47,561 nt of DNA from a virus (taxonomy: Duplodnaviria; Heunggongvirae; Uroviricota; Caudoviricetes): the IMG/VR virus record IMGVR_UViG_3300036951_000304; one strand, 5' to 3'. The first letter of the stretch is position 1; every line of letters begins with the position of its first letter. The translations under genes and the position numbers were made by a program. Shown one piece after another: positions 8,370 through 41,911 of this stretch. The notes beneath the pieces are model-generated. The model searched no databases. It was not told the origin of the DNA and worked only from the letters and a program-made list of their open reading frames with translations.

Positions 8370-8564
8370 CTAATCCCTGTATGTATCCCTGTACCGTTCC
8401 AATGATTTTTGGAGCGCTTCTTTTCTTTTTCTCAATGCTTCTTTTGTATTTTTATCTTCCGTGCTCTGGATTTGTTTTTCCAAATCCTGTATCTGTTTTT
8501 TTAACCTTATTCTCGCATTTATTGTCTGTGTATCATCTTCAGAGAGAAATTCGTAAAGTCTCAT
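8370..8564 (-). CDS. Small coiled-coil protein with MRLYEFLSE leader
   Basis: 64-aa ORF coupled to its neighbours. Confidence 0.65.
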   Translation of the reverse strand: MRLYEFLSEDDTQTINARIRLKKQIQDLEKQIQSTEDKNTKEALRKRKEALQKSLERYRDTYRD

Positions 8565-8983
8565 TTTTCTTCCTTTTCATACTCTTCCGCTTCTTCCTTG
8601 GTCTTGTGAACCGTTCCCGGCGGATGATGTGGAGGAGCATATAAACTGTAAAGCTTCAATTTCTTCGTGGAGGATGTATTCACAACATTGTGATATGTTC
8701 CCTGTCTGATAAGAATTGAACTGCCATCTTTTATCGGGATTTCCTCTTTATTATTTACAACTACTTTTCCCTCTCCCTCATCAATACGGAAGAACTGGTC
8801 TGTATCATTGTGAACCTCATTCCCGATTTCACTATTGGGCTCAATGGCCATCAGAACAAGTTGAAGATGTTTTCCTGTATACAGAACTTTTCGGAAATAA
8901 TTATTTTCAACAGTTTCATCTTCAATATCTCTCACATCAAATGGTTTTTGCTCTTCTTCTTTCAGATAATCTTTGAATTTCAT
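8561..8983 (-). CDS. Cupin-domain protein with MKFKDYLKEEE leader
   Basis: Cupin motifs GNEVHNDTDQFFRIDEGEG...ILIRQGTYHNVVN...LYAPPHHP; start moved to the second Met. Confidence 0.85.
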   Translation of the reverse strand: MKFKDYLKEEEQKPFDVRDIEDETVENNYFRKVLYTGKHLQLVLMAIEPNSEIGNEVHNDTDQFFRIDEGEGKVVVNNKEEIPIKDGSSILIRQGTYHNVVNTSSTKKLKLYSLYAPPHHPPGTVHKTKEEAEEYEKEEK

Positions 8984-8996
8984 TATTTCCCCCAAT

Positions 8997-9182
8997 TTAT
9001 CTCGTCAGTTTATCGAATGCAAGGCCGATCTTATGCCAGTCAATCCAACCATCTCCACCTCTATTCATCACCATTTGGTTCAGAATAAAATCATAGGCCC
9101 CATCTTCTCCATATTCGGCAAGAAGATTTTCTGCTTCCTGTCTATAATTTATCGCCTCGGTCAAATAATTTTTAAATTTCAT
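8997..9182 (-). CDS. Small hypothetical protein with MKFKNYLTEA leader
   Basis: 61-aa ORF, tightly packed. Confidence 0.65.
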   Translation of the reverse strand: MKFKNYLTEAINYRQEAENLLAEYGEDGAYDFILNQMVMNRGGDGWIDWHKIGLAFDKLTR

Positions 9183-9556
9183 TATGCCGGCTCCGTATCA
9201 TATGACCCACATTTCGGGCATTTTACTTCGTAGGTACTTGGCCCAATTTTTTTCTTGAATGTCTTACCACATTCCATACACTTCATATTAGTGGGTGGGC
9301 CTGTCATTCTTCTTGAAGAACCAGAACCGGGCTGTCCGGGCCAGCGATGGGCTGGGCCGCGCTGAGACATAAAATGCTCAGAGACAAGATATTTGTCAAT
9401 TAGCCTGTCTATACTCTCATTCTTTTCTGTATTCTGTTCCCACATTGAATAACAAATTGCCGCGGCCTCGTCCTGCTCGTGGCCTTCACCTTTCAGAATT
9501 GGAATACAACGGGCAATATATTCGTCTTTTTTTTCTCCTGCTTCCGGTTTCGGCAT
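9182..9556 (-). CDS. Hypothetical protein with N-terminal PKPxxGExKDEYIARC motif and C-terminal Zn ribbon
   Basis: Start reassigned to MPKPEAGE (GGAGG RBS). C-terminal CMEC...CPKC. Confidence 0.7.
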   Translation of the reverse strand: MPKPEAGEKKDEYIARCIPILKGEGHEQDEAAAICYSMWEQNTEKNESIDRLIDKYLVSEHFMSQRGPAHRWPGQPGSGSSRRMTGPPTNMKCMECGKTFKKKIGPSTYEVKCPKCGSYDTEPA

Positions 9557-9557
9557 A

Positions 9558-9851
9558 TTATCCTCCAAATTTACCCAGCTCTTTTCTTGCCATCTTTTCA
9601 AATTCATCTGGTTCCAGATATTCATCTACATTGACCAGATTTATATGTTTTGAGGTTGTCCGACTATATTTTTCCGCCGTGGCATATGTTCTGTCGTTTG
9701 CTTCAAACGCTACAAGTGTCTCGTATGAAAAATACAGTACGGTTTCCCCGACATTTACTCTCACGAAATTCGGGGCCATCTGCTTCAAATGTGCCAAGCC
9801 TGGCGCAGAGGCCTCTGTCAGAACATCCCTGTCTTTTATAATTTTTCCCAT
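9558..9851 (-). CDS. Conserved phage hypothetical protein
   Basis: LYFSYETLVAF...YSRTTSKHIN motif, recognised as typical of phage proteins. Confidence 0.7.
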   Translation of the reverse strand: MGKIIKDRDVLTEASAPGLAHLKQMAPNFVRVNVGETVLYFSYETLVAFEANDRTYATAEKYSRTTSKHINLVNVDEYLEPDEFEKMARKELGKFGG

Positions 9852-9852
9852 A

Positions 9853-10478: not shown

Positions 10479-10506
10479 ATAATCCACCCCCATACTTTGT
10501 CAATAG

Positions 10507-10514
10507 TATTTATA
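10507..10514 (-). promoter_or_regulatory. T4-type late promoter TATAAATA (leftward)
   Basis: Exact consensus in the divergent intergenic gap. Confidence 0.75.
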
Positions 10515-10532
10515 TTTATTTACTGTCTTTCC

Positions 10533-10540
10533 TATAAATA
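10533..10540 (+). promoter_or_regulatory. T4-type late promoter TATAAATA (rightward, PAS operon)
   Basis: Exact consensus about 35 nt upstream of ATG 10576, followed by a GGAGG RBS. Confidence 0.75.
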
Positions 10541-10575
10541 ATACTGAATATTCGTCATTCGGGCGGTGGAGGTTT

Positions 10576-12092: not shown

Positions 12093-12093
12093 G

Positions 12094-12462
12094 ATGAGGT
12101 TGTTGAATTTCTTGAAGAGTATTGAGGAACAGGATGGCGGTATGGTTGGTGCGACTACAACCGCAAGTATCGCCCAATATCCTGTCAGGCTCGGTATTGG
12201 AATTACCAGAAGGGAAGCCACCAAAAATTGGAGAAGATGGAAAAAGAAAAGGAAAAAAGTCGAGGAGCAGGAAGCCAGTATCGGGATGCCTGGTGGTTGG
12301 GGTTCGGCTGGTGGGTCACCCACAACAAAACAAATATTACAGGATCCTGTAAAGCACGATTACGGTATGACAAGAAGGGAAGCCACCAAAAATTGGCGCA
12401 GACGCAAAAAAAGGATGAAGGAATTATTCCAAAATGGCACATCTCATTCAATATCTGATTGA
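12094..12462 (+). CDS. Basic protein with duplicated TRREATKNWRRxKK motif
   Basis: 24-bp exact repeat at 12208-12231 and 12373-12396; MRLLNFLKSIEE leader. Confidence 0.7.
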   Translation: MRLLNFLKSIEEQDGGMVGATTTASIAQYPVRLGIGITRREATKNWRRWKKKRKKVEEQEASIGMPGGWGSAGGSPTTKQILQDPVKHDYGMTRREATKNWRRRKKRMKELFQNGTSHSISD

Positions 12463-13798
12463 ACAGAATATAGACAAAGTAAGATTTGTAGTTCTTACTG
12501 GCAGAAAACCAAATGGTGAAAATGAACTGATCAGGACGGCCAGAGTTATCAAGGAAACTTGTGATAAAAAAGGTGTGCCCTGTTATGTCGTATTTGCTGA
12601 GGATGGATATATTTCCAGAAAGAACGGAAAAGTTTATATCCACAATATTGAAGATGATAAGGGTTTCGAAATCAATTCTCAAGACACGGTTGTTATCGTG
12701 AGAGGAAGCGTCACCAAGTCACAATCAAGCCTTGACCTTCTTTCCCAAATCGAGAGACATAATATCTTTTGTGTAAATCACAGATTGACACTTGAACAAT
12801 GTGCTGACAAGTACAGAACAGCTCTCGTACTTGCGGATGCGGGAGTGTCAACGCCCAAAACAGCCATTGTCAATAACGAAAAGGGTCTGGAAATCGCGTT
12901 CAAGAAAATGGGAAGAAGGTTCCCTGTCATTCTCAAGACATTGACTGGCTCAAAAGGCGTCGGTGTATTTGTCGCAGACAGCTGGGAAGGATTGAAATCA
13001 ACCCTGCAAGCCATCTGGAAAATAAATCATAGTGTTGAAATCATTATGCAGAGATTTCTTGAGGCTGACTATGATCTCCGTGTTCACGTTCTTGGAGATA
13101 AAGTCATCGCGGCAATGAAGAGGAAAAAAATAAAGGGAGATTTCCGCTCCAACTATTCTCTCGGCGGTAAAGTCGAAAAAGTGGAGTTACAGGATGACGA
13201 AATTGAACTCGCCATCGCGGCCTCGAAAGCCGTGGGGGCGACTTGGTGTGGTGTCGATATAATGAGAAACAAGAAGGACAAAAAGCTTTTTGTCCTCGAA
13301 GTCAATTCATCGCCCGGCACAGAGGGGATTGAAAAGGCCACGGGAAAATCGGTTGTAACAAAGGTGGTCAATTACCTTCTGGACAAAAGAAACTGGTCGA
13401 GAAGGCCAATAGAGTGTGGCTACCTTGAGACAATGGAACTGGAAGGCATCGGGCCCGTAGAAGCCAAACTTGATACAGGTAACGGCTCTTTCTGTGTCAT
13501 TCACGCCGAGGAATATGAGGTGGATGGAAATAAAGTTACTTGGCTATTCAACGGAAAGGAAATCACAAGTGAACTTGAAAGTGAAAGAACCATCAAGGTT
13601 GGTGGACTGAAAACTGGAACAGTAGACAGGCCGGTAATCTGGTTGGATGTCAAATTCAGAGGTGAAACTTACAGGATGAGATTTGCCCTGAATTACAGGG
13701 GTGACAGAAAGACTTATCTATTGATGAATAGAAACTTCATTCGTAAGGCAAATCTGATAATCAATCCTCGCAGAAAGCATGTGTTCACGAAAGATTAG
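12434..13798 (+). CDS. rimK: RimK-family ATP-grasp ligase fused to a RimK-associated putative protease domain
   Basis: ATP-grasp motifs CADKYRT, PVILKTLTGSKGVGV, DLRVHVLG, DFRSNYSLGG, GVDIM, LEVNSSPG; C-terminal EAKLDTGNG...RPVI...LMNRNFI. Confidence 0.88.
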   Translation: MAHLIQYLIEQNIDKVRFVVLTGRKPNGENELIRTARVIKETCDKKGVPCYVVFAEDGYISRKNGKVYIHNIEDDKGFEINSQDTVVIVRGSVTKSQSSLDLLSQIERHNIFCVNHRLTLEQCADKYRTALVLADAGVSTPKTAIVNNEKGLEIAFKKMGRRFPVILKTLTGSKGVGVFVADSWEGLKSTLQAIWKINHSVEIIMQRFLEADYDLRVHVLGDKVIAAMKRKKIKGDFRSNYSLGGKVEKVELQDDEIELAIAASKAVGATWCGVDIMRNKKDKKLFVLEVNSSPGTEGIEKATGKSVVTKVVNYLLDKRNWSRRPIECGYLETMELEGIGPVEAKLDTGNGSFCVIHAEEYEVDGNKVTWLFNGKEITSELESERTIKVGGLKTGTVDRPVIWLDVKFRGETYRMRFALNYRGDRKTYLLMNRNFIRKANLIINPRRKHVFTKD

Positions 13799-14403
13799 CT
13801 CAACCTTTTCACAATACCGTCACACATTCCAAGTTTTATTGCTTCCTCCGGACGCAGATATTTATTCCTGTCAATCAGTTTCGTAACATCTTCTGCCGAC
13901 AATTTACATCTTGAAGCAATTTCCTCAATCATCTGGCCCTGTAGAAACTTTATCTCTTCTGTATCAATGACCACATCGGCAAGTGTTCCCCCGTGCCAGG
14001 AACTTATCTGATGGAACATCAATCTGGAATGTGGGGTCATAAACCTTCTTCCCTTCTTACCGTTTATGAAAATAAAGGCGGCCGCCGACATTGCTTTTCC
14101 TATACAGATTGTCCTGATAGGGGATACAATGATGTTCATCATATCCGTTACGGAAAACATACTATCAACTTCACCACCGTAACAGTCAAGTATCAATGTA
14201 ATCTCTTTCAATGGGGCATCAGATTGATAATCCAACAATCTTTCATTTATATCTTTTGCCAGATTTTCGTCAAGGTTCCCCACGATATAGATAATCCTGT
14301 CCATTCTCTTGGCTGTTTTCGGGGGCCCCATCTCCTTCATTATCTCCTGTGGATCAATAATAAAATGAACTTCCTGTGATTCTTTCTTTGTTTTCCTCTT
14401 CAT
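13795..14403 (-). CDS. clpP: ClpP-family protease subunit
   Basis: RIIYIVG, YGGEV, GKAMSAA (catalytic Ser), RLMFHQ (His), PEEAIKLGMCDGIV. Confidence 0.9.
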   Translation of the reverse strand: MKRKTKKESQEVHFIIDPQEIMKEMGPPKTAKRMDRIIYIVGNLDENLAKDINERLLDYQSDAPLKEITLILDCYGGEVDSMFSVTDMMNIIVSPIRTICIGKAMSAAAFIFINGKKGRRFMTPHSRLMFHQISSWHGGTLADVVIDTEEIKFLQGQMIEEIASRCKLSAEDVTKLIDRNKYLRPEEAIKLGMCDGIVKRLS

Positions 14404-21915: not shown

Positions 21916-21942
21916 AAAACGCCTCCACATTTTATCTACTGT

Positions 21943-21971
21943 ATTATACCACAATTTGGCTTGATTGTAAA
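21943..21971 (-). promoter_or_regulatory. Sigma70-type early promoter TTTACA-17-TATAAT (TG-extended) for the replication operon
   Basis: TTTACA atcaagccaaattgtgg TATAAT. Confidence 0.8.
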
Positions 21972-21977
21972 TAGAAG

Positions 21978-22016: not shown

Positions 22017-22036
22017 CATATACAAGAGGATCTTCA

Positions 22037-31774: not shown

Positions 31775-32334
31775 CAATCCATATGCTCCATATTCGTATG
31801 TTTATAACCACTTGGTTTACCGTACATCACTATACCATAATGGTAGGATTTGTTTTCCTGATCAATATAAGCGTGCCATCTTGCATCAAGTTCATCATAT
31901 GTCAAATATGTTCTCTTTGGTGAGGCGGGATCTTCAAAATAAATCCTCTTATCATCATATCCTATTGCCACAACCCAATGTGCCCAATCCCATTCTTCGT
32001 TCCAATCTACAGGATTATCAGGCCACGCCTGAACCATCATCATTACCGGAATACCACGATCAATATACGATTTCAATTCGTCTATCGACATATTTTCCTT
32101 TTCTTCCGGTGTCAATCCATACTTTTGGGATGCCCTGACTATATCAGCCGGTTCCGCACCTATATTGGGATCAACATTCAAATCCTTTATAATGTCAGAC
32201 TCGCGATATTCCTTTCCATAATAAAAAAGAACTGATTGTAATACAGAGGCCCCACAATCGTAATCATAGGTCTGTCTCAATTCCGGAAATTCCATCAGCT
32301 TTATATTGTTTACGAAGATTGAAAATCTACTCAC
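31774..32334 (-). CDS. C39-like cysteine peptidase
   Basis: RQTYDYDCGASVL (Q..C), HWVVAIGYD (His), FEDP (Asp). Confidence 0.88.
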   Translation of the reverse strand: MSRFSIFVNNIKLMEFPELRQTYDYDCGASVLQSVLFYYGKEYRESDIIKDLNVDPNIGAEPADIVRASQKYGLTPEEKENMSIDELKSYIDRGIPVMMMVQAWPDNPVDWNEEWDWAHWVVAIGYDDKRIYFEDPASPKRTYLTYDELDARWHAYIDQENKSYHYGIVMYGKPSGYKHTNMEHMD

Positions 32335-33752
32335 TATTTCTCTCCTCCGTGGAGCTTCAATATATATTTATCAATTTCCTCTTGGTCTTGAACATTGTTA
32401 TCTATGGCCCATTCCGTGGCTTTCTTGATAATCTTACCTACTTGAGGGCCGGGTGATAGACCCGTCAGCTCCATTACCCTGTGACCGTCCACAACCTTCA
32501 TAATGTGATTGACCATCTTCTGGCCCCATTTCTTCTTTATCTCCACGGCAAGATCGACAATCTTCTCAAAATCATCCCTCGCCATAAATTTCTCTCCACG
32601 GGAAAATTCATCTGCTCTGGCTACCGCAACCAGTACATCCCAGTTTTCATCCCCAACCAGTTTGGCAATCTTACTTGGTTTCATACCGATGATTTTCTGG
32701 AACTTCATATGGTTCGCCACGGAGAAGAGGATGGCATCTCTTTCCTTGTTACTCAATCTCAATCTGTCTGCTATATCGTTTACCAGTTTGACGCCTTCTT
32801 CAGCGTGCTGATAGTATATCGGGCCTCTCTCATTATAGTCAAGAGTAACACCTTTACCTACATCGTGGAGAAGGATTGAAAGATTGATAAGTGGGTCTTT
32901 ACTCCTGCTGTTTTCCAGAGCGGAAAGAATGTGTTCCCACACATCACCCTCCGGATGAAATTCCTTGACGTGCGGCATACCTTTCAGTTTGGCTATCTCC
33001 GGTAGAATGATTTCCAGTATTCCCATCTCATCGAGATAGGTGAGATATTTGGCAAACTTATCCCCACCGGAACTGGCTGCCTTGAAGATTTCCTCTTTTA
33101 TTCTTTCGGCTGCAAGACCCTTTACCTTGTCTGCCAATTCCGTGGCCGCCTGTTTCGTTTTCGGGTCTATGGCAAACCCAAGGCGGGAGGCAAATCTTGC
33201 CGTCCTCATAATCCTCAAATAGTCCTCACCAAATCTATCGTGAGGATTTCCCACCGTCCTGATGACCTTGTTTTTTATGTCCTTCATCCCGTCGAAATAG
33301 TCGATGATGTTTCCCTCTGCATCAACAGCCATTGCGTTGATGGTGAAATCCCTTCGGGCGGCATCCGCCTCAAAGGAACCCACAATCTTCACGGTGTCGG
33401 GCCTTCTCCCATCCTTATATGTTCCATCCTCACGGAACTGAGCAACCTCATAACTGAAACCGCCTTCCCTGACCACGACCAGACCGAACTCCTTCGATTT
33501 ACCGATATCATATACTTTCCAGATTTTGGAAAGTTCTTCCATCGGCATATTCGTGGCAATGTCAATGTCCTTTGGTTTGTCACCGAGAACAATATCCCTG
33601 ACAGCCCCGCCAGTAATATAGGCCGAATATCCCCTTGATGTTATCTTTTTCAGAACAGAAACGGCACCACGAAGAATAGGTTCGGAATTATAATATTCCT
33701 TCCATTTTTCAAGTTGCTCGGCTTCAAGTAATAATCTTTTATGTAAATTCAT
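32334..33752 (-). CDS. cca: Class II CCA-adding tRNA nucleotidyltransferase with HD domain
   Basis: GGAVRD, KDIDIAT, DAARRDFTINAMA, EDYLRIMR, HPEGDVWEH, LLHDVGK. Confidence 0.95.
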   Translation of the reverse strand: MNLHKRLLLEAEQLEKWKEYYNSEPILRGAVSVLKKITSRGYSAYITGGAVRDIVLGDKPKDIDIATNMPMEELSKIWKVYDIGKSKEFGLVVVREGGFSYEVAQFREDGTYKDGRRPDTVKIVGSFEADAARRDFTINAMAVDAEGNIIDYFDGMKDIKNKVIRTVGNPHDRFGEDYLRIMRTARFASRLGFAIDPKTKQAATELADKVKGLAAERIKEEIFKAASSGGDKFAKYLTYLDEMGILEIILPEIAKLKGMPHVKEFHPEGDVWEHILSALENSRSKDPLINLSILLHDVGKGVTLDYNERGPIYYQHAEEGVKLVNDIADRLRLSNKERDAILFSVANHMKFQKIIGMKPSKIAKLVGDENWDVLVAVARADEFSRGEKFMARDDFEKIVDLAVEIKKKWGQKMVNHIMKVVDGHRVMELTGLSPGPQVGKIIKKATEWAIDNNVQDQEEIDKYILKLHGGEK

Positions 33753-34277
33753 TTATTCCCCAATATTCAGCCCTGCGGCTTCTGCATCATTTTCGGAGCC
33801 ATAGTGGTAATAATCCCTTTTGACATCTTCTATCCAACTATTATAATTACTGATATATTTTTTGAGCCATTCTGGTGATAACTCAAAACTGTATTCAGAC
33901 CAAAAATGTCCTTCACCTGGCGCAGTTATTTCCATCTTACCACTATTGTCTGATGTAATAAAGCCTGTAACATACTCCCTTGGTTCACCTTCCGGTGGAT
34001 ATAAAACAACTGGTTTCATATAACCCTTTTTGGCTAACCATCTTATCATATCAAGATGTATTTCTGCTCTGATTGGCCATACTATCAGTTTTTGTTCCTT
34101 TGGAGCAACAATAAATCTGAACCTCTTTACACCGGATGTTTTTACAAGGTTTTTCATTTCCATTGGTGTTGGATTGACATATATTTCACGATATTGTTCA
34201 CCTATCCTGAAACCGATATCACCTCTACCAGAGAAGGTCGCTAAATATTTTTCCTTCAAATATTTCTTCAGCCTCAT
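33753..34277 (-). CDS. Paralog family member 1 (MRLKKYLKEK)
   Basis: YVNPTPMEMKN...RFIVAPKEQKLIVW...IHLDMI...FS..WLKKYISN. Confidence 0.8.
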   Translation of the reverse strand: MRLKKYLKEKYLATFSGRGDIGFRIGEQYREIYVNPTPMEMKNLVKTSGVKRFRFIVAPKEQKLIVWPIRAEIHLDMIRWLAKKGYMKPVVLYPPEGEPREYVTGFITSDNSGKMEITAPGEGHFWSEYSFELSPEWLKKYISNYNSWIEDVKRDYYHYGSENDAEAAGLNIGE

Positions 34278-34681
34278 CAAAACATCCTCGCATCTTCCCT
34301 ATTGGAAAAATACTTGTCGAGCCACGCCCAACTGTCATCCAATTTCTTATCACCAAAAGTATCAGTAATTACCATCTTCGACCCACGCACTTCACACGAA
34401 CCAACCATCAGCGTGCCAGCGAGATATCTTTCAGTAATTGGAATGAGGCCCTTCTTTATCAAATGCTTCAACATAAAAGAGTGAATTTCAACTTCCTCAT
34501 CCCATACATAGAGATTTTTCTTATTTGGATCAGCAATAAATCTCATCCCGTTCAATTTGAATTGTTGCATATCCCGAGCATCCGGATTTACATAGATCGC
34601 CAATCTTTCATCCTCAAAGGTCTCTCCGGCGGGTAAATATGATCCGATATATTTTTCCTTCAGATATTTCTTGAGCCTCAT
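34277..34681 (-). CDS. Paralog family member 2 (MRLKKYLKEK)
   Basis: IYVNPDARDM...RFIADPNKKNLYVWD..IHSFML...WAWLDKYFSN. Confidence 0.8.
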   Translation of the reverse strand: MRLKKYLKEKYIGSYLPAGETFEDERLAIYVNPDARDMQQFKLNGMRFIADPNKKNLYVWDEEVEIHSFMLKHLIKKGLIPITERYLAGTLMVGSCEVRGSKMVITDTFGDKKLDDSWAWLDKYFSNREDARMF

Positions 34682-35175
34682 CCCTTTTCACCCCACTTGT
34701 GGTGAGTTCTCATCAATTCACCCGTATTACCAATATAGGCCATCACCCTGTCCATATTACTGAAATACTTTTCGACCCACTCCCATCCATCCGTTTGAAT
34801 ATGCTCAAAGTCTCTCATATTGTAACCAAGACCCCATTCAAATTTCATCTTGTCTCCGTCCGGTGAAGCAAATCCTGAAAATAAACTTTCCGGAAACCTT
34901 CCCCACTCATCTGCTGGAATTTTATCAATACTCTGAAGATACTCAAGGACGCAGGAATGAATACCCTCATCCTCCGATGCCCATATGAACATCTTTTTAT
35001 TCGGTGAAAATGCTATAAACTTTATCGTGGCCTCCGGAAACTGCTGTGACCTTGTATAAACATCGGGCATTTTTCTTATCTCTTCCGGTGTTGGATTTTC
35101 ATAGATGCGTGCTTTCGCACCGGCATACTTATAAAGACCCATATATTCCTCTTTCAGGTATCTCTTCAGCCTCAT
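34678..35175 (-). CDS. Paralog family member 3 (MRLKRYLKEE)
   Basis: GLYKYAG..IYENPTPEEIRKMP...IKFIAFS...MFIWAS..GIHSCVL...WEWVEKYFSNM; start reassigned (ATGA overlap). Confidence 0.8.
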   Translation of the reverse strand: MRLKRYLKEEYMGLYKYAGAKARIYENPTPEEIRKMPDVYTRSQQFPEATIKFIAFSPNKKMFIWASEDEGIHSCVLEYLQSIDKIPADEWGRFPESLFSGFASPDGDKMKFEWGLGYNMRDFEHIQTDGWEWVEKYFSNMDRVMAYIGNTGELMRTHHKWGEKG

Positions 35176-35906
35176 CCAGCTATAGCCTCCAATTCCCGTA
35201 TCCACTCTTTCGGAATATTCCAAGTTCTGATAACCCTGATAAATGCCGGATCGTTTTCAATCTGTTTTTTCAGCTTCCATCTGTAAAACTTGAGATAATT
35301 CTCCATAACCTCAATTACATCGCCGTATTTCTTGACTTCCCTTGTATTACTGATAATCTTGAGTTTACCCTTTGTCTCATTGATCAAACTTCCTACGGAA
35401 AGCAACCAGTAATAATCGACAATGACAATAACCTCACCCTTGGCTCCATCCGGAATTTTATTTGAGACCTTGTATCCCCCGACAACCTGATTTATCTTAT
35501 CATCGTCTACAGACTTCCATAGATTGTCATTCCTCTTGACTTGTGCCAAATCCCATATTTCCGGATTATAAAATGTAGTAAACGGGCCGATAGGAATAAA
35601 AACATACGGTGTACCAAAAAAGGCGGAATGGGGGAGGTCTGTAGTCGTAAAGACAGGAGAGCCGGGCAAATCCAGCTTCTCTATGACCCTTTCTGCACTC
35701 GGAAGGAAACTACCACGGAAACCCTCCCTGTCAGATTTTACCTTTACCATCCAACCGGAACCGTGAAAATCTGATCTCTTTGACCATCCCTTCCATAAAA
35801 CTGGATCACTCCTGTCCATCTTCTTGAGAAGATCAAGAACTTCATCAAAATTCCATTCATCCCTTCTGGACACCACACCTTCATTTATAAATCCCGATAG
35901 TCTCAT
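35172..35906 (-). CDS. Hypothetical protein, possibly ART-like (MRLSGFINEG leader)
   Basis: VLWKG...R..FRG...VFTTTD...AFFGTPYVFIP; pattern resembles an ART beta1-beta2 core. Confidence 0.5.
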   Translation of the reverse strand: MRLSGFINEGVVSRRDEWNFDEVLDLLKKMDRSDPVLWKGWSKRSDFHGSGWMVKVKSDREGFRGSFLPSAERVIEKLDLPGSPVFTTTDLPHSAFFGTPYVFIPIGPFTTFYNPEIWDLAQVKRNDNLWKSVDDDKINQVVGGYKVSNKIPDGAKGEVIVIVDYYWLLSVGSLINETKGKLKIISNTREVKKYGDVIEVMENYLKFYRWKLKKQIENDPAFIRVIRTWNIPKEWIRELEAIAG

Positions 35907-36356
35907 TTATGTTCTCGCCGCTTGTAAATTCGACCTGATATAGCTATATACTTTACCCATATTCAGGAAATACTTCGAAAGCCAACTCCAATCATATTCA
36001 CCAAAAACACTATACCCTCTTGTAAACTTCATCTGGCCGCTCTCAGGTATTGCGTATCCGGCAAAAACACCATCGGCCTCAAGAGACCACGCATCACGAA
36101 TTTTCCTTTTTGTGTGAAGATAGTCCAAAACATAATCGTGGATACCGCCATCACTTCTCCACATAAAAAGCTGCTCAGTTGGGGCATAGGCAATAAATCT
36201 TATTGTTTCATCCGGATTGATGTGTTTTTCGGATTTTTGAAAAGTGGGCATAAATCGTATCTCATTAGCATTCGGGTTCTCATATATTTCGGTATGTTCT
36301 CCCGCATACTTGTATATACCGATATATTCCTCTTGGAGATACTTTTTCAGCCTCAT
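35907..36356 (-). CDS. Paralog family member 4 (MRLKKYLQEE)
   Basis: GIYKYAG..IYENPNANEIRFMP...IRFIAY...LFMWRSDGGIHDYVL...WSWLSKYFLNM. Confidence 0.8.
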   Translation of the reverse strand: MRLKKYLQEEYIGIYKYAGEHTEIYENPNANEIRFMPTFQKSEKHINPDETIRFIAYAPTEQLFMWRSDGGIHDYVLDYLHTKRKIRDAWSLEADGVFAGYAIPESGQMKFTRGYSVFGEYDWSWLSKYFLNMGKVYSYIRSNLQAART

Positions 36357-36817
36357 TTTCTCCCATCCTTTTCAATATAATTCATCAGCTGAGGCATATT
36401 GACAAAATACTTGTCAAGCCAATCCCATATGCCCTTGGAAATATCGTATCCCCGTGTGCCAAGACCGTATCCCCTTTCGAACTTCATCTTGTTCCCTTGT
36501 GGGGAGGCATATCCGGAGACAATATCAGCGGGTTCCCGTCCATATACATCCGTGGGTATTTTCTTTTTCAGTTGAAGCCATTCAAGAACGTGGTAGTGGA
36601 CACCACCATCGGAGGCCCATATAAACAGTTTTTGTTTTGAGCCGAGGGCGAGAAATCTTATAGAGCAATCCATAAGCTCCGGATGCTTGGGTTCATTGTA
36701 TATGGTGGGCATAAACCGGATTTCATTGGGGTTGGGGTTTTCATATACCTCTGTAGCTAACCCACCATACTTATACATACCTATAAATTCTTCTTTGAGA
36801 TATCGTTTCAGCCTCAT
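36353..36817 (-). CDS. Paralog family member 5 (MRLKRYLKEE)
   Basis: GMYKYGG..VYENPNPNEIRFMP...IRFLAL...LFIWASDGGVHYHVL...WDWLDKYFVNM. Confidence 0.8.
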   Translation of the reverse strand: MRLKRYLKEEFIGMYKYGGLATEVYENPNPNEIRFMPTIYNEPKHPELMDCSIRFLALGSKQKLFIWASDGGVHYHVLEWLQLKKKIPTDVYGREPADIVSGYASPQGNKMKFERGYGLGTRGYDISKGIWDWLDKYFVNMPQLMNYIEKDGRK

Positions 36818-37083
36818 CAGTAACCGTCCGGATCGTCCTCTACTTCATCGTAAATCATATCCCTCAAGGCCATACGAACATCGGCCGAGTTTGCGTGTTC
36901 ATAAGCAGACCCGTAATACCCAACTTCCATATCCCTTCTGGGCAATCCGAGCTGTTTTCTTGCGCCGTGAACCAGTTTAACCAGTTTATCATCGAGGGCC
37001 TGGGCCATTTTCTCAAAAGCCTCTTGGATATCGGCTGCATAATCATCTATCATTCTATCTGTAATCTCTCGTCTTTTTGGCAT
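36817..37083 (-). CDS. Hypothetical protein, tandem paralog of 37095-37382
   Basis: ITDRM...ARKQLGL...ANSADVR..LRDMIYDEVED is shared with the neighbour. Confidence 0.75.
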   Translation of the reverse strand: MPKRREITDRMIDDYAADIQEAFEKMAQALDDKLVKLVHGARKQLGLPRRDMEVGYYGSAYEHANSADVRMALRDMIYDEVEDDPDGY

Positions 37084-37094: not shown

Positions 37095-37382
37095 TCAATA
37101 TTCCTCATCTTCTACTTCATCATAGATCATACTTCTCAATTCCTGTCTTACATCCTGAGAATTGGCCAGTTCCCACAGGGAGCCGGAATAGTCCATTTCC
37201 AGATACGGCATTCTCTTCAGACCGAGTTCCTTTCTGGCCTTGTGAACCATTGATACTATCTTCGTATCTATTTTCTTCGCTTCCTTCTCATAAAAGTCTT
37301 GGATACCTGCGGCAAGCCTGTCCACCATTCTATCCGTGATCTGTTTTCTGGCTTCATCGAGCCGTTTTTCGAGTTTTGACAT
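37095..37382 (-). CDS. Hypothetical protein, tandem paralog of 36817-37083
   Basis: ITDRM...ARKELGL...ANSQDVR..LRSMIYDEVED; GGAGG RBS. Confidence 0.75.
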   Translation of the reverse strand: MSKLEKRLDEARKQITDRMVDRLAAGIQDFYEKEAKKIDTKIVSMVHKARKELGLKRMPYLEMDYSGSLWELANSQDVRQELRSMIYDEVEDEEY

Positions 37383-37430
37383 AGTTTTCCTCCGAAAATA
37401 TCACTTTCTCCATCAAAAAAATCCTGCATC

Positions 37431-37459
37431 TTTACAAACAAAAAAATATGTGATAAAAT
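37431..37459 (+). promoter_or_regulatory. Sigma70-type promoter TTTACA-17-TAAAAT pointing rightward into non-coding DNA
   Basis: TTTACA aacaaaaaaatatgtga TAAAAT. Confidence 0.5.
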
Positions 37460-37523
37460 ACAAATTACTTGTGAGGTCGTGGAATATATAAATTTTATAA
37501 ATTACAAGTTTTATTATCAAAAT

Positions 37524-37531
37524 TATTTATG
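37524..37531 (-). promoter_or_regulatory. Probable late promoter CATAAATA for the 37382-24549 operon
   Basis: The only late-like octamer found between the terminator and the first gene; the same variant occurs at 5014 and 42987. Confidence 0.5.
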
Positions 37532-37543
37532 GTTTTTATGCAG

Positions 37544-37578
37544 AAAAAAAGGGTTATTACAGTAAAATCAATAACCCC
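37544..37578 (-). terminator. Rho-independent terminator ending the ThiF-JAB transcript
   Basis: GGGTTATT-11 nt-AATAACCC followed by T7 on the minus strand. Confidence 0.8.
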
Positions 37579-37608
37579 TTTCTTGTTTCAATTGAAATTT
37601 TTATAAAA

Positions 37609-38439
37609 TTATATAGTAAAATTGTCTTTTTCACTATTTTCAGTAAATTCTTTTATCAATTCCTCTTCCAGAGAAAGTTCCTTATCCTGACTATCAAATA
37701 ATTGAGGTGATTTCTTTTCAGGTTCTCTATTGACATATCCATAGCCATCAAAGAAATCCCCACCACAATATCTGTCATACCAGTTATCTCTGGATGAAGT
37801 ATACGGTGTAACAATTTTCCTGTCCCTGATATTCTCTTCTGCGGACTTGATAAAGGTTTCCTCATCAAAGTCAAGATTATAGCTCACCTTTGGTTTGGCC
37901 TCCATAATCTTCTTGGCGCCACAGGGAACATTCACCCTGACCTGAACCTTCATACTGGTATGGCTGACAAGGATGGAGATATCGTGGTTCTGATTGATCC
38001 ACTTGTCATCGGTTCCGGAAAATCCACAACCCATATTATGGTGTGAATGAATGACACCGAGGACTTTCATTCCGTTTTCCAGCTTGGGGAACTGAATGTC
38101 ATCAACGCTGGCAGATGTTGCTGTCTGGACAGGAATAACCATATCAACGATGTGAAACGGTTTCTCCGGTGAACCAACCAGATAACCAAGCCATTCTCTG
38201 CTTGTGTACTTTTTCATCAGGGCGTCGATCTTAGCCATCACAATAGGGGTAAGATATACAGTTATATCCTTTGGGGCCTTACTGCACTCCGTGATGCACT
38301 CCACCTTTGTCTCCCACTCGTCCGGTTCCGAAGGAGTGACAACTACGGAGGGTGAAGATTTCCACGGAGACCCCACCAAATCTTGAGCCACCCACCTACC
38401 CCCTATAAACTTTTTTATAATCATTTTTATCTTCTCCAT
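37609..38439 (-). CDS. JAB/MPN+ (JAMM) metalloprotease, prokaryotic deubiquitylase-like
   Basis: REWLGYL (Glu)...GVIHSHHNMGCGFSGTD (HxH-x7-S-x2-D). Confidence 0.88.
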   Translation of the reverse strand: MEKIKMIIKKFIGGRWVAQDLVGSPWKSSPSVVVTPSEPDEWETKVECITECSKAPKDITVYLTPIVMAKIDALMKKYTSREWLGYLVGSPEKPFHIVDMVIPVQTATSASVDDIQFPKLENGMKVLGVIHSHHNMGCGFSGTDDKWINQNHDISILVSHTSMKVQVRVNVPCGAKKIMEAKPKVSYNLDFDEETFIKSAEENIRDRKIVTPYTSSRDNWYDRYCGGDFFDGYGYVNREPEKKSPQLFDSQDKELSLEEELIKEFTENSEKDNFTI

Positions 38440-39017
38440 TGAAATAATCTCTGTATATTCGATGACATTTCACTATCATAATATTTCATAATTTTTGCGA
38501 CAGCCAAGGCGGCCACAATTGTAGCCGGAACAACCCAAGACGGAACAACGGTGTAACCATCCTCCGCCTCCCCCCATTCAGCCACGGCATTGTGTATGCT
38601 CATATTCATACCGTCATACCCCACCTTCATATACCGCGCACCAAATTTATGGGCTATCTTTTCGTTTGCCTGTTGTGAGCAAAGCTTATCGGTACAATCG
38701 ACAACCCAATCGGATTGAGGAAATGTGTGATCCTGTAAAATAAACGGGAAGGCCAAAACCGTGGCGCTGGGTCTGATACGGTTGATGATAGACTTCGTGA
38801 CCTGAGCCTTGTTTATACCGAGATATTCAATCGAAATGTCAATCCTGTTCAAATTATGCTCTTCAAAGGCATCAGGATCAAAAAGATATATCCTCTCTAT
38901 ACCGGACATTGCGGCAAATTTTGCCACCCAGTATCCGATACCCCCACAACCAACTACAGTTATAGATTGCTTCGTAGAAAGGTTGAGAGTGCTCTGGCGG
39001 GTATATAAATTATCCAT
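38427..39017 (-). CDS. ThiF/MoeB-family E1-like adenylating enzyme
   Basis: LYTRQ, VVGCGGIG, DPDAFEEHNLNR, NKA, VVDCTD; start MDNLY with a GAAAGGA RBS. Confidence 0.9.
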   Translation of the reverse strand: MDNLYTRQSTLNLSTKQSITVVGCGGIGYWVAKFAAMSGIERIYLFDPDAFEEHNLNRIDISIEYLGINKAQVTKSIINRIRPSATVLAFPFILQDHTFPQSDWVVDCTDKLCSQQANEKIAHKFGARYMKVGYDGMNMSIHNAVAEWGEAEDGYTVVPSWVVPATIVAALAVAKIMKYYDSEMSSNIQRLFQWRR

Positions 39018-39046
39018 ACACAATCCTTTCACAAATTTATTGGTAT

Positions 39047-39075
39047 ATTATACCATATTTTCGATAGGTGGTAAA
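39047..39075 (-). promoter_or_regulatory. Sigma70-type early promoter TTTACC-17-TATAAT for ThiF-JAB
   Basis: TTTACC acctatcgaaaatatgg TATAAT. Confidence 0.78.
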
Positions 39076-39076
39076 T

Positions 39077-39121
39077 AGAAAAACAGGATAGAGCCGTAGT
39101 GCTATCAGACCCTATCCTGTT
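39077..39121 (-). terminator. Hairpin terminator after HNH
   Basis: 10-bp inverted repeat AACAGGATAG/CTATCCTGTT followed by a T-run on the minus strand. Confidence 0.7.
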
Positions 39122-39124
39122 ATG

Positions 39125-39646
39125 TTACCAGCCCAACTCCTTCAAGGCATCTTCCATACCAAGACGCCTGATCTGCATCTTGATAAATTCCATAATGGTT
39201 GGCTCATAAGCCCTGTACCTTGGAAACATACTTGCCTGTGAAGGAAGCCTGTTATCCTTCTTCTGATTACAAGGAACGCAGGAAGTCACAACATTCTCAA
39301 ATGTTGACTTACCACCTTTTGCTTTTGGAACAACGTGGTCGAGTGACATATGAGTTGTGCTCCTCTTGCCACAGTAGGCACAAGTGTAATTGTCCCTCAT
39401 AAGAACGTGCCTCTTGTTGAAAGGAACCTTTGTCTTGAAGAGGGTTCTGATAAACTTGATCAAACGAAGGATTTTAGGCAACAAGAACTTCACGGTCTTT
39501 TCCGTATTATGGATCAAGATATCAGTTGCTTTGACAACCTCTACCTTACCCTTCGCCATCAGTTTTACAGCCTTCTTACCACCGATTACACCCAATGGAG
39601 TGTAGTCAGCGTTCAACAAAAGAACTCTCGCTGTTTCCAACCTCAT
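39125..39646 (-). CDS. HNH endonuclease (McrA-like)
   Basis: VLLLNADYTPL, RDNYTCAYCG, LDHVVPKAKGG, NVVTSCVPCNQKK. Confidence 0.92.
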   Translation of the reverse strand: MRLETARVLLLNADYTPLGVIGGKKAVKLMAKGKVEVVKATDILIHNTEKTVKFLLPKILRLIKFIRTLFKTKVPFNKRHVLMRDNYTCAYCGKRSTTHMSLDHVVPKAKGGKSTFENVVTSCVPCNQKKDNRLPSQASMFPRYRAYEPTIMEFIKMQIRRLGMEDALKELGW

Positions 39647-39651
39647 ACAAA

Positions 39652-39912
39652 TCACTCCTTTCTGAATTGATCAGGAATTTCCAGTTTTCCTCTTTTCAAT
39701 TTCTTGATATTATCGTTGTCCTCTCTTATCAATCTCATATATTTTTGATATTCGAGAACTATGTCTGCTCTTTTCGCAACCTTTTCGTTATTTTCACCGT
39801 ACCTGATTTCTTCTACACCCTTCTCACAAAACATACATAGTTTTGTTTTCTCTTCCACCTTGGCTACAAATCCAGGCGGGTAAAATTTTCTGCATTTATC
39901 ACACAATGGCAT
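39652..39912 (-). CDS. Hypothetical protein with two CxxC motifs
   Basis: CDKC...CMFC; GGAGG RBS. Confidence 0.7.
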   Translation of the reverse strand: MPLCDKCRKFYPPGFVAKVEEKTKLCMFCEKGVEEIRYGENNEKVAKRADIVLEYQKYMRLIREDNDNIKKLKRGKLEIPDQFRKE

Positions 39913-39914
39913 TT

Positions 39915-40721
39915 TTATTCCTCCACTTTTTCATTGTATCGGAGCCTCGCCAATTTTGTAAAAAAATCAACATCCGTATTATTATCACAGGCCATTCTTG
40001 TGGCCCTTATGAACATAGCTGTAACATATTTTATGGCTTTCCACTTCAGATGATAATCCCGGCCCCCGATATATCTGAATTCAATATACTTGTTTTTTCC
40101 CTTGAGATGCTGTAGATTTATCCCCATATAGTGATTTTCGCTGAAAACGGGCTTCACTTTATAATTTTCAACAATGAAATCTCCCACTCTTTTCCTGAAT
40201 ACTTTCTTTATGTCCTTATGAACACTCTCACAAAAAGTATTATTCTTTCTCATCGGAAAGAACTCATATATCTCGTTCTCATCCACAAAAAGACCCAATT
40301 TCATAACATCTATCTTATTATACCATCCTCTATCCTTCAAGGAAATGCCCAAGTGAAAACCACATTTATTATCAGTTACGGCCCCCACCTTTTTCATATG
40401 AGAAAATATAAACGGACAAATCTCAAGATATTCTTTTAGCGGCATAACAGGCGAAACCAACTCCAATCCGGCATCACCCACACTATTATCACTCTTGATA
40501 ATCCATTTCTTCTTATTGTAATAGTGATGATAGTCCTTTATTACATAATCGAATGGTAATCTTGGCGCCTTGAAATAGGAATACGCAATTTTGGATATAT
40601 CGGGTTTCGTTTTATACCCCTCATTCCGAAAAACAGACGGAAAGATACATTCTATTTCAAACCCCACTTGTACTTTGGGGTCTTGGAGAACCTTTCTGAT
40701 TTCTCCCCGTATCATAATCAT
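39915..40721 (-). CDS. Putative amidoligase (COOH-NH2 ligase, Amidoligase_2-like)
   Basis: VGFEIEC, IKSDNSV...LELVSP, CGFHLGIS, HYMGIN, IEFRY. Confidence 0.82.
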   Translation of the reverse strand: MIMIRGEIRKVLQDPKVQVGFEIECIFPSVFRNEGYKTKPDISKIAYSYFKAPRLPFDYVIKDYHHYYNKKKWIIKSDNSVGDAGLELVSPVMPLKEYLEICPFIFSHMKKVGAVTDNKCGFHLGISLKDRGWYNKIDVMKLGLFVDENEIYEFFPMRKNNTFCESVHKDIKKVFRKRVGDFIVENYKVKPVFSENHYMGINLQHLKGKNKYIEFRYIGGRDYHLKWKAIKYVTAMFIRATRMACDNNTDVDFFTKLARLRYNEKVEE

Positions 40722-40727
40722 CCCTTT

Positions 40728-41045
40728 CTATACTTTCATATATGTGCAATGCGGATAATTCTTTTCTTCCAATTCTCTCAAAGACCAATAGGGATTGGGA
40801 AATATCGACAACAAAAACAAAATATCCCTGATTGCCATATCACGAAAAAATTTATATTCCCGATACGAAAACATTTTGGCCGCTTCCATCTTTCCAAAGA
40901 TTTTAGCTCTTTCACTAAAGAGCGCACTCGATAAATAGAGATCAACTGCCTTGTGAATGATAGCTCTTCCCCACGGGGATAACCAGACAACATTCATCAT
41001 AAAATAAGTTATCTTATAGATGATATTTTTCAAAATGTCTTTCAT
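40728..41045 (-). CDS. Hypothetical protein
   Basis: 105-aa ORF with ATGA coupling. Confidence 0.6.
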   Translation of the reverse strand: MKDILKNIIYKITYFMMNVVWLSPWGRAIIHKAVDLYLSSALFSERAKIFGKMEAAKMFSYREYKFFRDMAIRDILFLLSIFPNPYWSLRELEEKNYPHCTYMKV

Positions 41046-41911
41046 ATATTTCCTCTATTGATATAATCAATGATTACAGGAATTACATATTTTTCATCAC
41101 CAAAAAATTGGGGAGCGGGATTAATTTCGAATACCAACCATTCACCAGTTTTCTTATTCTGTACAATATCAACCCCGGCGAAATCGAGATTGAATATCCT
41201 ATCGACTTTAATAGCAAGATCTTCTACTTCCGGTGGAAGTTTGTCAATATATTCCTGTTTCCCGCCCAAAGAAATATTATTTCTGAATTCCTTTGGCGAG
41301 GAACTTTTTCTTTTTATAGAGTAGAGTATTTGACCTCTGAAGAAAAAGACCCTAATATCCCCATCATTGGGTATAAATTCTTGGAATATGAAAAAGTCCT
41401 CTTTATTACCCATAGAAAGAAATTTGTCAAGTTGAAACCTCTTATCTATCTTTGACACACCTTCTCCTCGTGCAGTATCAAGAGACTTGACCACAACCGG
41501 CAAACCCAATTTTGAGAATAGTTCCTCGGACGATGTTTTCATTTTTGAAGAAATAATAGTTTTAGGTTGTGGAATTGACATCTCCTCAAATTTTGAGTTC
41601 TGAGAAATCTTACTGGTTTCATTCGAGCCTTTTCCGTAACAGAGATATCTTATGTTATGTAATTTCAAATAATTTATAACGGTAGATGCCATATTAATAT
41701 GATCCCCGTAGCCGACTATTACAAAATTATAACTCCCCAAACTCTCGCCCCGGATCAATATATCCTCTTCAAAGACAATATCAGTCCATTTACAGTCAAC
41801 TATATTTTCAAAATGTTCTCTCAGAAAATCGACCACCGTGCTTTTCATAGAGATCATCAATATTCTACCCCTGAATGTTTCTGTTAGATATCGTCTTAGT
41901 TTTGTTTCCAT
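41042..41911 (-). CDS. rimK: Second RimK-family ATP-grasp ligase (METKLRRYLTE leader)
   Basis: PVVVKSLDTARGEGV, FQEFIP, DIRVF, FRNNISLGG, AGVDIV, FEINPAP. Start reassigned to ATG 41911 (AAGGAG RBS) because the track's extension overlaps a tRNA. Confidence 0.88.
   Translation of the reverse strand: METKLRRYLTETFRGRILMISMKSTVVDFLREHFENIVDCKWTDIVFEEDILIRGESLGSYNFVIVGYGDHINMASTVINYLKLHNIRYLCYGKGSNETSKISQNSKFEEMSIPQPKTIISSKMKTSSEELFSKLGLPVVVKSLDTARGEGVSKIDKRFQLDKFLSMGNKEDFFIFQEFIPNDGDIRVFFFRGQILYSIKRKSSSPKEFRNNISLGGKQEYIDKLPPEVEDLAIKVDRIFNLDFAGVDIVQNKKTGEWLVFEINPAPQFFGDEKYVIPVIIDYINRGNI

Follow-up and report, generated by a model that had tools for sequence, protein, structure and literature searches.

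The window analysed here, a stretch of 47,561 nt from the Caudoviricetes record IMGVR_UViG_3300036951_000304, encodes a set of proteins that share a short N-terminal leader. In its strict form this leader comprises nine residues, M[RK][LF]xx[YF][LI]xE, and six-frame translation of the window yields 11 matches, all 11 of them on the coding strand at ORF starts (8564, 8983, 9182, 31334, 31774, 34277, 34681, 35175, 35906, 36356 and 36817), while the equivalent DNA pattern likewise occurs 11 times against 0.01 expected (100 shuffles). Two further leaders keep the spacing with an offset of one (MAHLIQYLIE, 12434) or two residues (METKLRRYLTE, 41911), and five are loose (MRLLNFLKSIEE, 12094; MLFKNFLE, 30700; MAKFDEYLYKD, 31042; MNLHKRLLLE, 33752; MSKLEKRLDE, 37382), so that a tag ending in (L/I)-x-E is strict in 11 proteins, offset by 1–2 residues in two and loose in five. 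All 18 N-terminal strings quoted in an earlier sequence-only reading of this DNA are present, at real gene starts. The leader-bearing genes and their neighbours are as follows.

8370–8564, minus strand: 64-aa protein, canonical leader MRLYEFLSE (strict motif)
8561–8983, minus strand: 140-aa cupin, canonical leader MKFKDYLKE; Cupin_2 domain at residues 44–114, after the leader
8997–9182, minus strand: 61-aa protein, canonical leader MKFKNYLTE (strict motif)
10500–10545: back-to-back TATAAATA boxes at 10507–10514 (minus) and 10533–10540 (plus), matching the T4 late-promoter consensus
12094–12462, plus strand: 122-aa basic protein, loose leader MRLLNFLKSIEE, with Glu at positions 11/12 and not 9
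12434–13798, plus strand: RimK-type ATP-grasp ligase fused to a Zn_protease-like domain, leader MAHLIQYLIE
13795–14403: ClpP-like protease
30401–30700, minus strand: 99-aa protein, loose leader MLFKNFLE
30707–31042, minus strand: 111-aa protein, loose leader MAKFDEYLYKDVIVE, retaining the hydrophobic positions and with I-x-E first at 13–15
31044–31334, minus strand: 96-aa protein, canonical leader MKLKDYIRE (strain variant MKLKNYITE)
31337–31774, minus strand: 145-aa basic protein, canonical leader MRLKGYLVE (strain variant MRLQHYLVE)
31774–32334, minus strand: cysteine protease of Peptidase C39-like type within the block; no leader
32334–33752, minus strand: CCA-adding enzyme (PolyA_pol head and HD domain), degenerate leader MNLHKRLLLE
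within 33753–36817, minus strand: five paralogous small proteins (starts 34277, 34681, 35175, 36356 and 36817), leaders MRLK[KR]YL[KQ]E
35172–35906, minus strand: 244-aa protein, leader MRLSGFINE, unrelated to the five paralogues around it
36817–37083, minus strand: 88-aa protein without leader, paralogue of the gene starting at 37382
37095–37382, minus strand: 95-aa protein, loose leader MSKLEKRLDE; L-x-E at 8–10, no aromatic residue
37383–37608, minus strand: intergenic region of 226 bp at the head of the 30.4–37.4 kb block
37609–41911: ThiF/JAB/amidoligase/RimK conjugation genes
41042–41911, minus strand: second RimK-type ligase (RimK2), leader METKLRRYLTE, spacing shifted by two residues

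Several of these start sites can be cross-checked. For the cupin, gene callers chose the same ATG on other contigs, and the RimK2 start at 41911 is correct because a tRNA-Ser occupies 41925–42018. The leader of the RimK-type enzyme at 12434 has the spacing of the T4 capsid-targeting sequence (CTS; positions 4, 7, 8 and 10) and, by alignment, lies within an N-terminal extension of approximately 15–20 residues relative to solved RimK, the tag preceding the first strand in both ligases. The degenerate leader of the CCA-adding enzyme has a canonical counterpart, MRFKRYLAE, in an orthologue (58% identical) from a related phage, where it is found among five other tagged genes. The 64-aa protein at 8370–8564 matches no Pfam family above cutoff and no PHROG.

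Distribution and conservation of the leader

A looser core of the motif, [YF][LIV]xE within the first 16 residues, is present in 19 of the 108 proteins of the phage, compared with 1.96 predicted from its rate in protein interiors (Poisson P ~5e-13). As the sequence-only reading had maintained, replication genes lack the leader: polB, DnaB, UvsW, the methyltransferase, UDG and the clamp loader are all negative at the N-terminus, and none of the tail and baseplate proteins of the phage carries the tag. UvsW does contain an internal KYLRE at residues 21–24, so that the four-residue core by itself is not specific. All 12 leaders compared have L or F at position 3 and Y or F at position 6.

The same reading had called the carriers unrelated, which holds in part. 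At least seven mutually unrelated families carry the strict leader, but the genes starting at 34277, 34681, 35175, 36356 and 36817 form one paralogous family when compared with the leader removed, and the two RimK proteins are related to each other. Codons vary synonymously between leader copies and the DNA upstream is not conserved, while M1, R2, L3 and E9 are retained in 35906 homologues that are 59, 42 and 39% identical, with variation at positions 4, 5 and 8; differing codons together with retention of the tag at 39–59% identity indicate that selection acts on the peptide and not on the DNA. In strain variants the leader is conserved and its variable positions behave as in the 35906 homologues. 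One exception is the protein starting at 30700, whose strain variant begins MLFKNFLQ, without conserving the Glu.

Beyond these strains, the DNA pattern occurs 19, 8, 10 and 5 times in records of related phages, and not once in the reversed control. The prohead proteases of these relatives, with their 5–19 tagged genes each, are 51–66% identical, and cargo sets differ from phage to phage. The present phage is an uncultured, distant relative of T4, with polB and the capsid protein only ~30–36% identical to those of any cultured phage.

The 31774 protein had been labelled 'ART-like', for which neither Pfam nor PHROGs provides a supporting match, and the C39 peptidase (31774–32334) carries no leader. 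Among the tagged proteins an ART fold may be weakly hinted at for the 35906 gene only, whose Atlas feature matches to DUF2441, DUF3841, PARP and Arr (scores 0.82–0.85), top Foldseek match to OspC3 (probability 0.44) and VIA-align Z of 2.5–4.0 to BC2332, Arr, DarT, cholix toxin and CteC all fall below reliable thresholds. AlphaFold2 models of two cargo families place residues 1–16 and 1–19 at pLDDT < 50, ahead of a confidently modelled fold, and with the leader forming this low-confidence N-terminal stretch the tag appears separable from the folded cargo domain.

Head module and putative late promoters

Genes of the head module, reached by walking along contigs of the same phage, include the following protease.

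L017:22931–23566 (same gene as L020:10001–10636): S77/gp21-type prohead protease (Pfam PF03420)

It is 28% identical to T4 gp21, conserves the GEL-x-HPP and SSRGLGS motifs (His, Ser), and begins with MKLITELSHNIE, close to MELITELFDE of T4 Alt. In a MAFFT alignment YKYLTE/AG of the major capsid protein (the slash marking the cut, here a predicted one) falls exactly under SFLTE/AE of T4 gp23, a known maturation site, at which the capsid proteins of relatives have KYLSE, QYMTE, IMLE, WLQE or FLME. The capsid-protein site has no hydrophobic residue at −6, and its match to the tag is therefore limited to the processing half. Each of four small proteins around the protease has RYLME, MYLKE, RYLGE or KYLAE among its first 14 residues, and an 831-aa protein following the portal starts MKFRNFVKE. 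In one strain an IS607-type element interrupts a 99-aa tagged head gene, so that at least this protein is dispensable. A radical-SAM/SPASM enzyme gene also lies among the structural genes.

These data bear on the earlier proposal of a portable, T4-CTS-like leader read by a prohead protease, and as far as sequence comparison goes they favour it: the phage encodes an S77/gp21-type protease, the predicted maturation site KYLTE/A of its capsid protein aligns with FLTE/A of T4, small proteins adjoining the protease carry YLxE near their N-termini, and conserved leader positions 3, 6, 7 and 9 reproduce the spacing of T4 CTS residues 4, 7, 8 and 10.

The timing of expression is less uniform. The TATAAATA boxes at 10500–10545 head two divergent operons holding the left-hand leader genes (8.4–10.5 and 10.6–13.8 kb), and exact TATAAATA boxes also stand at the head of head-module genes; late expression of tagged genes is thereby suggested for the two left-hand clusters only. 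No exact late box was found for the 30.4–37.4 kb block. The intergenic region at its head (37383–37608) contains, behind the JAB gene, a hairpin resembling a terminator, and further a 7/8 late-box match, CATAAATA, and a sigma-70-like site, TTGATA-17-TAAAAT (37520–37492), which is the best candidate promoter of the block. With a sigma-70-like promoter in place of an exact late box, late expression of most of the cargo stays putative.

Proposed capsid targeting and alternative explanations

In T4, the internal proteins IPII and IPIII begin MKTYQEFIAE. The prohead protease gp21 removes this CTS and that of IPI (Mullaney & Black 1996, cited in PMC9026906 and in PMC3012670), residues 4 and 7 being important for targeting and residues 8 and 10 for processing (PMC9026906). 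Here as in T4, short N-terminal tags ending in aliphatic-x-Glu are found on otherwise unrelated proteins, with L/F3, Y/F6, L/I7 and E9 spaced as Y4, F7, I8 and E10 of T4; a gp21-family protease is encoded, and the motif is shared with the capsid-protein maturation site; and tagged genes are located in variable blocks apart from the head module. The tags differ in length (nine residues here, ten in T4) and in having Tyr-Leu instead of Phe-Ile. Whereas T4 has three internal proteins and Alt, 13 to 18 tagged genes are found here in 47 kb, with five more in the head module, and the putative cargo includes recognisable enzymes (the CCA-adding enzyme, two RimK-type ligases and a cupin).

A comparable picture comes from the giant phages phiKZ, 201phi2-1 and SPN3US, whose ejection or inner-body propeptides are cut by gp21-related proteases at (S/A/G)-x-E or A-x-E (PMC5694885, PMC7411985). 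They too have many head-internal proteins processed C-terminal to Glu, and paralogous cargo with identical N-termini and diverged bodies. Their propeptides, however, are long and heterogeneous with a small P3 residue (Ala, Ser, Gly), in contrast to the uniform nine-residue tag with its aromatic-aliphatic pair, and the protease of the present phage is a direct Pfam S77 match, not S80.

We consider it probable that M-[RK]-[LF]-x-x-[YF]-[LI]-x-E serves this lineage as its own form of the T4 CTS, operating by a T4-like mechanism. The tag would form a short amphipathic helix whose hydrophobic face (positions 3, 6 and 7) attaches the protein behind it to the scaffolding core during prohead assembly; the gp21-type (S77) protease would then cut after the Glu of [YF][LI]xE, at the same site as that predicted for major capsid protein maturation, and the trimmed proteins would stay in the head and exit with the DNA at infection. 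Pointing to this reading are the N-terminal enrichment of the tag, selection on the peptide, the protease gene, the motif match in capsid and head proteins and conservation across the clade; docking, cleavage, virion retention, injection and a role in the next host are inferred by analogy with T4. That role might be tRNA CCA repair, RimK-type peptide ligation, or a function of the cupin or of the many ORFan proteins, and by inference only the 30.4–37.4 kb block, as the sequence-only reading proposed, may be a counter-defence/host-takeover island. Counting against capsid targeting, five of the 18 leaders are degenerate, one of them without its Glu in a strain variant, and the number and size of the cargo (more than 18 putative species, among them enzymes 454 and 472 aa long) go beyond anything documented for T4. 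A precedent for loading a large enzyme via a short cleaved N-terminus, followed by injection, is the 682-aa packaged ADP-ribosyltransferase T4 Alt, which like gp24 has a short N-terminal propeptide (cut at ITE-6 and LRE-10). In the present phage no homologue of Alt was identified, and the ART-fold hints of the 35172–35906 protein are weak.

The same tag could also serve as a prohead-protease substrate and core-incorporation signal on proteins that are not injected effectors but act in the assembling head, or that are disposable core filler, lost by degradation or expulsion during maturation in the manner of T4 gp22, gp67 and gp68. The four motif-bearing small head proteins do occupy the place of T4 gp67 and gp68, which after cleavage are for the most part lost (PMC9026906), and the dispensable 99-aa head protein interrupted by the IS607-type element fits as well. 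Yet it is not obvious what a CCA-adding enzyme, RimK ligases or a cupin would do in a prohead, every T4 protein with a short N-terminal CTS (IPI–III, Alt) is retained and ejected (PMC9026906, PMC5694885), and cargo that differs between related phages suits host-directed better than assembly functions; an assembly or filler role is accordingly rated unlikely. Less probable by some way is that some other system encoded by the phage recognises the tag as its handle. Genes for candidate systems are indeed present (the ClpP-like protease, the ThiF/JAB/amidoligase/RimK genes and the radical-SAM/SPASM enzyme), but one strain, with the rest of its head module unchanged, has a 367-aa gene without Pfam match in place of the radical-SAM gene, and six-frame searches of the window and the structural loci for the radical-SAM-linked tag motif (KxRxDFVTNSSSSSF type) gave no match. 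Such a handle would also leave unexplained why the tag ends in the capsid protein's maturation motif and why it marks genes flanking the S77 protease. Strongly disfavoured, finally, is a shared N-terminus without targeting function, whether left over from gene duplication or from shuffling of 5' ends, or kept because A-rich codons following the ATG are optimal for translation initiation. In its favour, five of the carriers belong to one paralogous family, and positions 2 and 4 have A-rich Lys/Arg codons; but such a reading would have to accommodate tagging of at least seven unrelated families, synonymous codon variation beside unrelated upstream DNA, retention of Tyr6, Leu7 and Glu9 at 39% overall identity, highly expressed structural genes without the tag, and a chance expectation of 0.01 for the strict motif.

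Capsid loading by an N-terminal tag is, as a principle, published for T-even phages, and no paper describing such a leader for the present lineage was found in the literature. The phage most likely employs T4's capsid loading with a different tag and for many more cargo proteins, enzymes included.

Occurrence of the leader and selection on the peptide

The N-terminal leader M[RK][LF]xx[YF][LI]xE is matched 11 times in the six-frame translation of the window, always on the coding strand and always at the first methionine of an open reading frame, and the matching degenerate DNA pattern is observed 11 times against 0.01 expected from shuffles. All the N-termini cited in the sequence-only reading, which had proposed an injected arsenal of some 18 unrelated leader-bearing proteins, are present at real gene starts. 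In the RimK-type ligases the motif is offset by one residue (MAHLIQYLIE) and by two (METKLRRYLTE), the start of the second ligase at 41911 being confirmed by the tRNA-Ser that occupies 41925-42018, and five more N-termini (starts 12094, 30700, 31042, 33752 and 37382) fit only loosely; the protein starting at 37382 has an untagged paralogue at 37083. Across 108 proteins of the same phage, drawn from the window, the structural region and the clamp-loader region, the core [YF][LIV]xE lies within the first 16 residues of 19, where 1.96 are predicted from its interior frequency (Poisson P ~5e-13). Replication proteins had been said to lack the tag, and indeed none has the motif at its N-terminus, nor does any tail or baseplate protein of the same phage. 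With an internal KYLRE at residues 21-24, UvsW (window 23130-24575) is alone among the replication and repair proteins in having the four-residue core near the N-terminal end, a resemblance that is probably incidental. Calling the carriers unrelated was an overstatement, as the genes at 34277, 34681, 35175, 36356 and 36817 form one paralogous family once the leader is trimmed, and the two RimK proteins are related; the strict tag is still found on at least seven mutually unrelated families.

Copies of the tag differ in synonymous codons (AGA/AGG, CTT/CTG/TTG/CTC, TAT/TAC) and have unrelated sequences upstream, which rules out a mobile DNA or recombination cassette as well as a regulatory DNA element. 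Homologues of the 244-aa tagged protein encoded at 35906 (three relatives only, found by a word-indexed homologue search), at 59, 42 and 39% identity, begin MRLKRFIKE, MRLASFMKE and MRLKKHLSE, with M1, R2, L3 and E9 invariant and positions 4, 5 and 8 variable. Strain variants follow the same pattern (MRLKGYLVE versus MRLQHYLVE; MKLKDYIRE versus MKLKNYITE), and these alignments indicate that selection acts on the peptide.

The head module and the T4 capsid-targeting sequence

The window derives from an uncultured phage placed distantly within the T4 superfamily. A GIY-YIG endonuclease interrupts its family-B DNA polymerase, which shares ~30% identity with gp43 from cyanophages and from Sinorhizobium phages. 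Other genes of the window encode UvsW, UDG, a DnaB-type helicase and a DNA methyltransferase, and there are eight tRNAs as well as tail-fibre-like genes. Regions outside the window were reached through metagenomic contigs encoding exactly identical proteins, and on contigs of the same phage a T4-like head module lies ~40 kb to the left, with the following content.

Head module, in order
Probable portal protein (558 aa, no Pfam hit), so named for its size and its place ahead of the head-core genes
831-aa protein, N-terminus MKFRNFVKE
Three small proteins, between the 831-aa protein and the protease
Pfam S77 (gp21-type) prohead protease (L020:10001-10636)
Four more small proteins, after the protease
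T4-type scaffold protein
Gp23-family capsid protein

The S77 protease shares 28% identity with T4 gp21, including the GEL-x-HPP and SSRGLGS motifs. When the N-terminal regions of the capsid proteins are aligned, YKYLTE|AG falls under SFLTE|AE of T4 gp23, the known gp21 cut site. In four of the small head-module proteins RYLME, MYLKE, RYLGE or KYLAE occurs among the first 14 residues, and in each of them a hydrophobic residue stands six positions ahead of the glutamate. The tag thus agrees in its final four residues with the phage's own predicted maturation site. The tagged genes of this module are exactly those standing in place of the T4 core proteins. One of them, encoding a 99-aa protein, is split just after the leader by an IS607-type element comprising a serine recombinase and TnpB/OrfB_IS605 (L019:11070-13471; L023:7216-9471, strain variant), so that its product appears dispensable.

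Other genes of the structural regions were recorded in passing. A PrkA/DUF444/SpoVR triad, homologous to the yeaG-yeaH-ycgB stress operon of bacteria, lies in the head-packaging module (L020:14904-19853), with the capsid protein gene on one side and the terminase genes on the other. At L020:2246-4539, among the structural genes, the gene for a radical-SAM/SPASM enzyme precedes that for a second Cys-rich protein (374 aa); in strain L019 a 367-aa gene without a Pfam match takes the place of the enzyme. The tail/baseplate region (L017:10001-14161) encodes a 1386-aa protein in which several methyltransferase domains and a faint glycosyltransferase domain are recognised.

T4 IPII and IPIII begin, as read from the T4 record, with MKTYQEFIAE, a capsid-targeting sequence (CTS) in which targeting depends mainly on residues 4 and 7 and processing on residues 8 and 10 (Black-laboratory work, summarised in PMC9026906). 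The conserved positions here are 3 (L/F), 6 (Y/F), 7 (L/I/V) and 9 (E), giving the same i, i+3, i+4, i+6 spacing one residue nearer the methionine. In AlphaFold2 models of two cargo families the leader lies in a low-confidence N-terminal stretch (pLDDT <50 for residues 1-16 and 1-19) before a confident fold. The tag is assigned to the T4-type CTS kind because everything about it that can be checked in sequence agrees with that kind.

Relatives of the S77 protease are encoded on 33 viral contigs, where small proteins with [KR]YLxE-type N-termini again occur in the head modules and the capsid proteins have YLSE, YMTE, IMLE, WLQE or FLME at the equivalent place. The DNA pattern of the tag is present in 19, 8, 10, 1 and 5 copies in five larger related records, its reversed control in none. 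In the 19-copy record a CCA-adding enzyme, 58% identical to that of the window, begins with a canonical MRFKRYLAE and has five other tagged genes around it, for which reason the MNLHKRLLLE of the window's enzyme is regarded as a decayed copy of the same tag. By these comparisons the tag is clade-wide. Literature searches pairing capsid targeting with T4-like phages and metagenomes turned up no description of so expanded a set of tags.

Tagged proteins and their genomic surroundings

Recognisable enzymes among the tagged proteins are a CCA-adding enzyme with an HD domain, a RimK ligase-Zn-protease-like fusion, a second RimK ligase and a cupin, and we know of no report that T4 packages CCA-adding enzymes, RimK-type ligases or cupins; compared with the internal proteins of T4, this putative cargo set is unusually large and enzymatic. 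The remaining tagged proteins have nothing in Pfam above curated cutoffs, nine of ten tagged ORFans are without a match in PHROGs, and fold searches with the five-paralogue family gave no fold match. The 244-aa protein has two weak PHROGs matches to families of unknown function, and weakly but repeatedly recalls ADP-ribosyltransferase folds (OspC3, Arr, DarT, cholix toxin, CteC) at sub-threshold scores (Z <=4); as a protein of that fold it would parallel T4 Alt, which is not established. The same label had earlier been given to the product of the gene at 31774, where it finds no backing in Pfam or PHROGs. A C39 peptidase encoded inside the 30.4-37.4 kb tagged block is without the tag.

A partial indication of expression timing comes from exact TATAAATA boxes, which stand back to back at 10507 and 10533, heading both left-hand tagged clusters (8.4-10.5 and 10.6-13.8 kb); the box also occurs upstream of head-module genes. 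Ahead of the 30.4-37.4 kb block there is only CATAAATA, together with a sigma-70-like site. Intergenic 39047-39075, 44361-44631, 45795-46267 and 21915-22037 share a promoter-like motif of the extended -10 type (TGGTATAAT or TGATACAAT), with TTGAAA ahead of it in two cases. These are probably host-sigma-70 early promoters, and none lies upstream of a tagged gene cluster.

The 30-42 kb block has no megablast match in cultured phages. The sugar-activation and methyltransferase cluster (window 24549-30137) behaves as a presence/absence cassette, since it is missing in several strain variants (compared with L001, L003 and L005), where the tagged block adjoins UvsW directly. A ClpP-family protease gene (window 13795-14403) lies between the C-terminal part of the DNA polymerase and the tagged RimK-Zn-protease gene. 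Past the right end of the window, two contigs (L006:1-5865 and L009:1-5865) carry bacterial-looking yceD, rpmF, acpP, fabF, SHMT, dCMP deaminase, NrdR and a class-Ic tRNA synthetase, and a third (L008:1-2275) carries phage HU and gp44/gp62 clamp-loader genes instead, reflecting either strain-specific auxiliary genes or chimeric assembly.

Probable capsid targeting, its alternatives and its implications

The tag probably works as a capsid-targeting and processing signal of the T4 type, and by analogy with T4 its carriers would be packaged, cleaved and injected and could have counter-defence roles. As core components, some of the tagged proteins may instead be cleaved and then discarded rather than delivered; this is the most serious alternative. 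Service to another encoded system, be it the ClpP-like protease, the ThiF/JAB/amidoligase genes or the radical-SAM/SPASM enzyme, is improbable, as it leaves the match to the capsid-protein site unexplained; a radical-SAM-linked tag in particular was rejected, its motif being absent from the six frames of the window and from the structural loci. Still harder to credit is a duplication relic or a translation feature, against which stand the number of unrelated tagged families, the codon divergence among copies and the lack of the tag in structural genes.

A broader and more tentative proposal, which we hold to be possible but somewhat doubtful, is that the tag marks a complete injected proteome readable from sequence in a large uncultured T4-like clade, that these pre-made enzymes act before phage transcription, and that the 30.4-37.4 kb block is a fast-evolving counter-defence arsenal. 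Under this proposal the proteins delivered with the DNA would include RimK-type peptide ligases, perhaps an ADP-ribosyltransferase, and the CCA-adding/HD enzyme, whose task would be to mend tRNAs cut by anticodon or CCA nucleases; the arsenal would be far bigger and more enzymatic than the T4 internal protein set.

The internal proteins of T-even phages are described as diverse defence proteins whose only common feature is a conserved CTS (PMC3012670), so the principle is already published for those phages and what is added here is an extension of it, with no new mechanism. If it acts as the T4 CTS does, the tag would provide a second packaging signal, different in sequence, with which protein delivery by T4-like capsids could be engineered. 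Should the tag work as in T4, the proteins carried into the cell could be listed from the genome alone, also for a clade of uncultured relatives; such a list would hold at least 18 proteins, most without known relatives and several of them enzymes, and would amount to a short, ranked set of candidate first-minute host-takeover or anti-defence factors.
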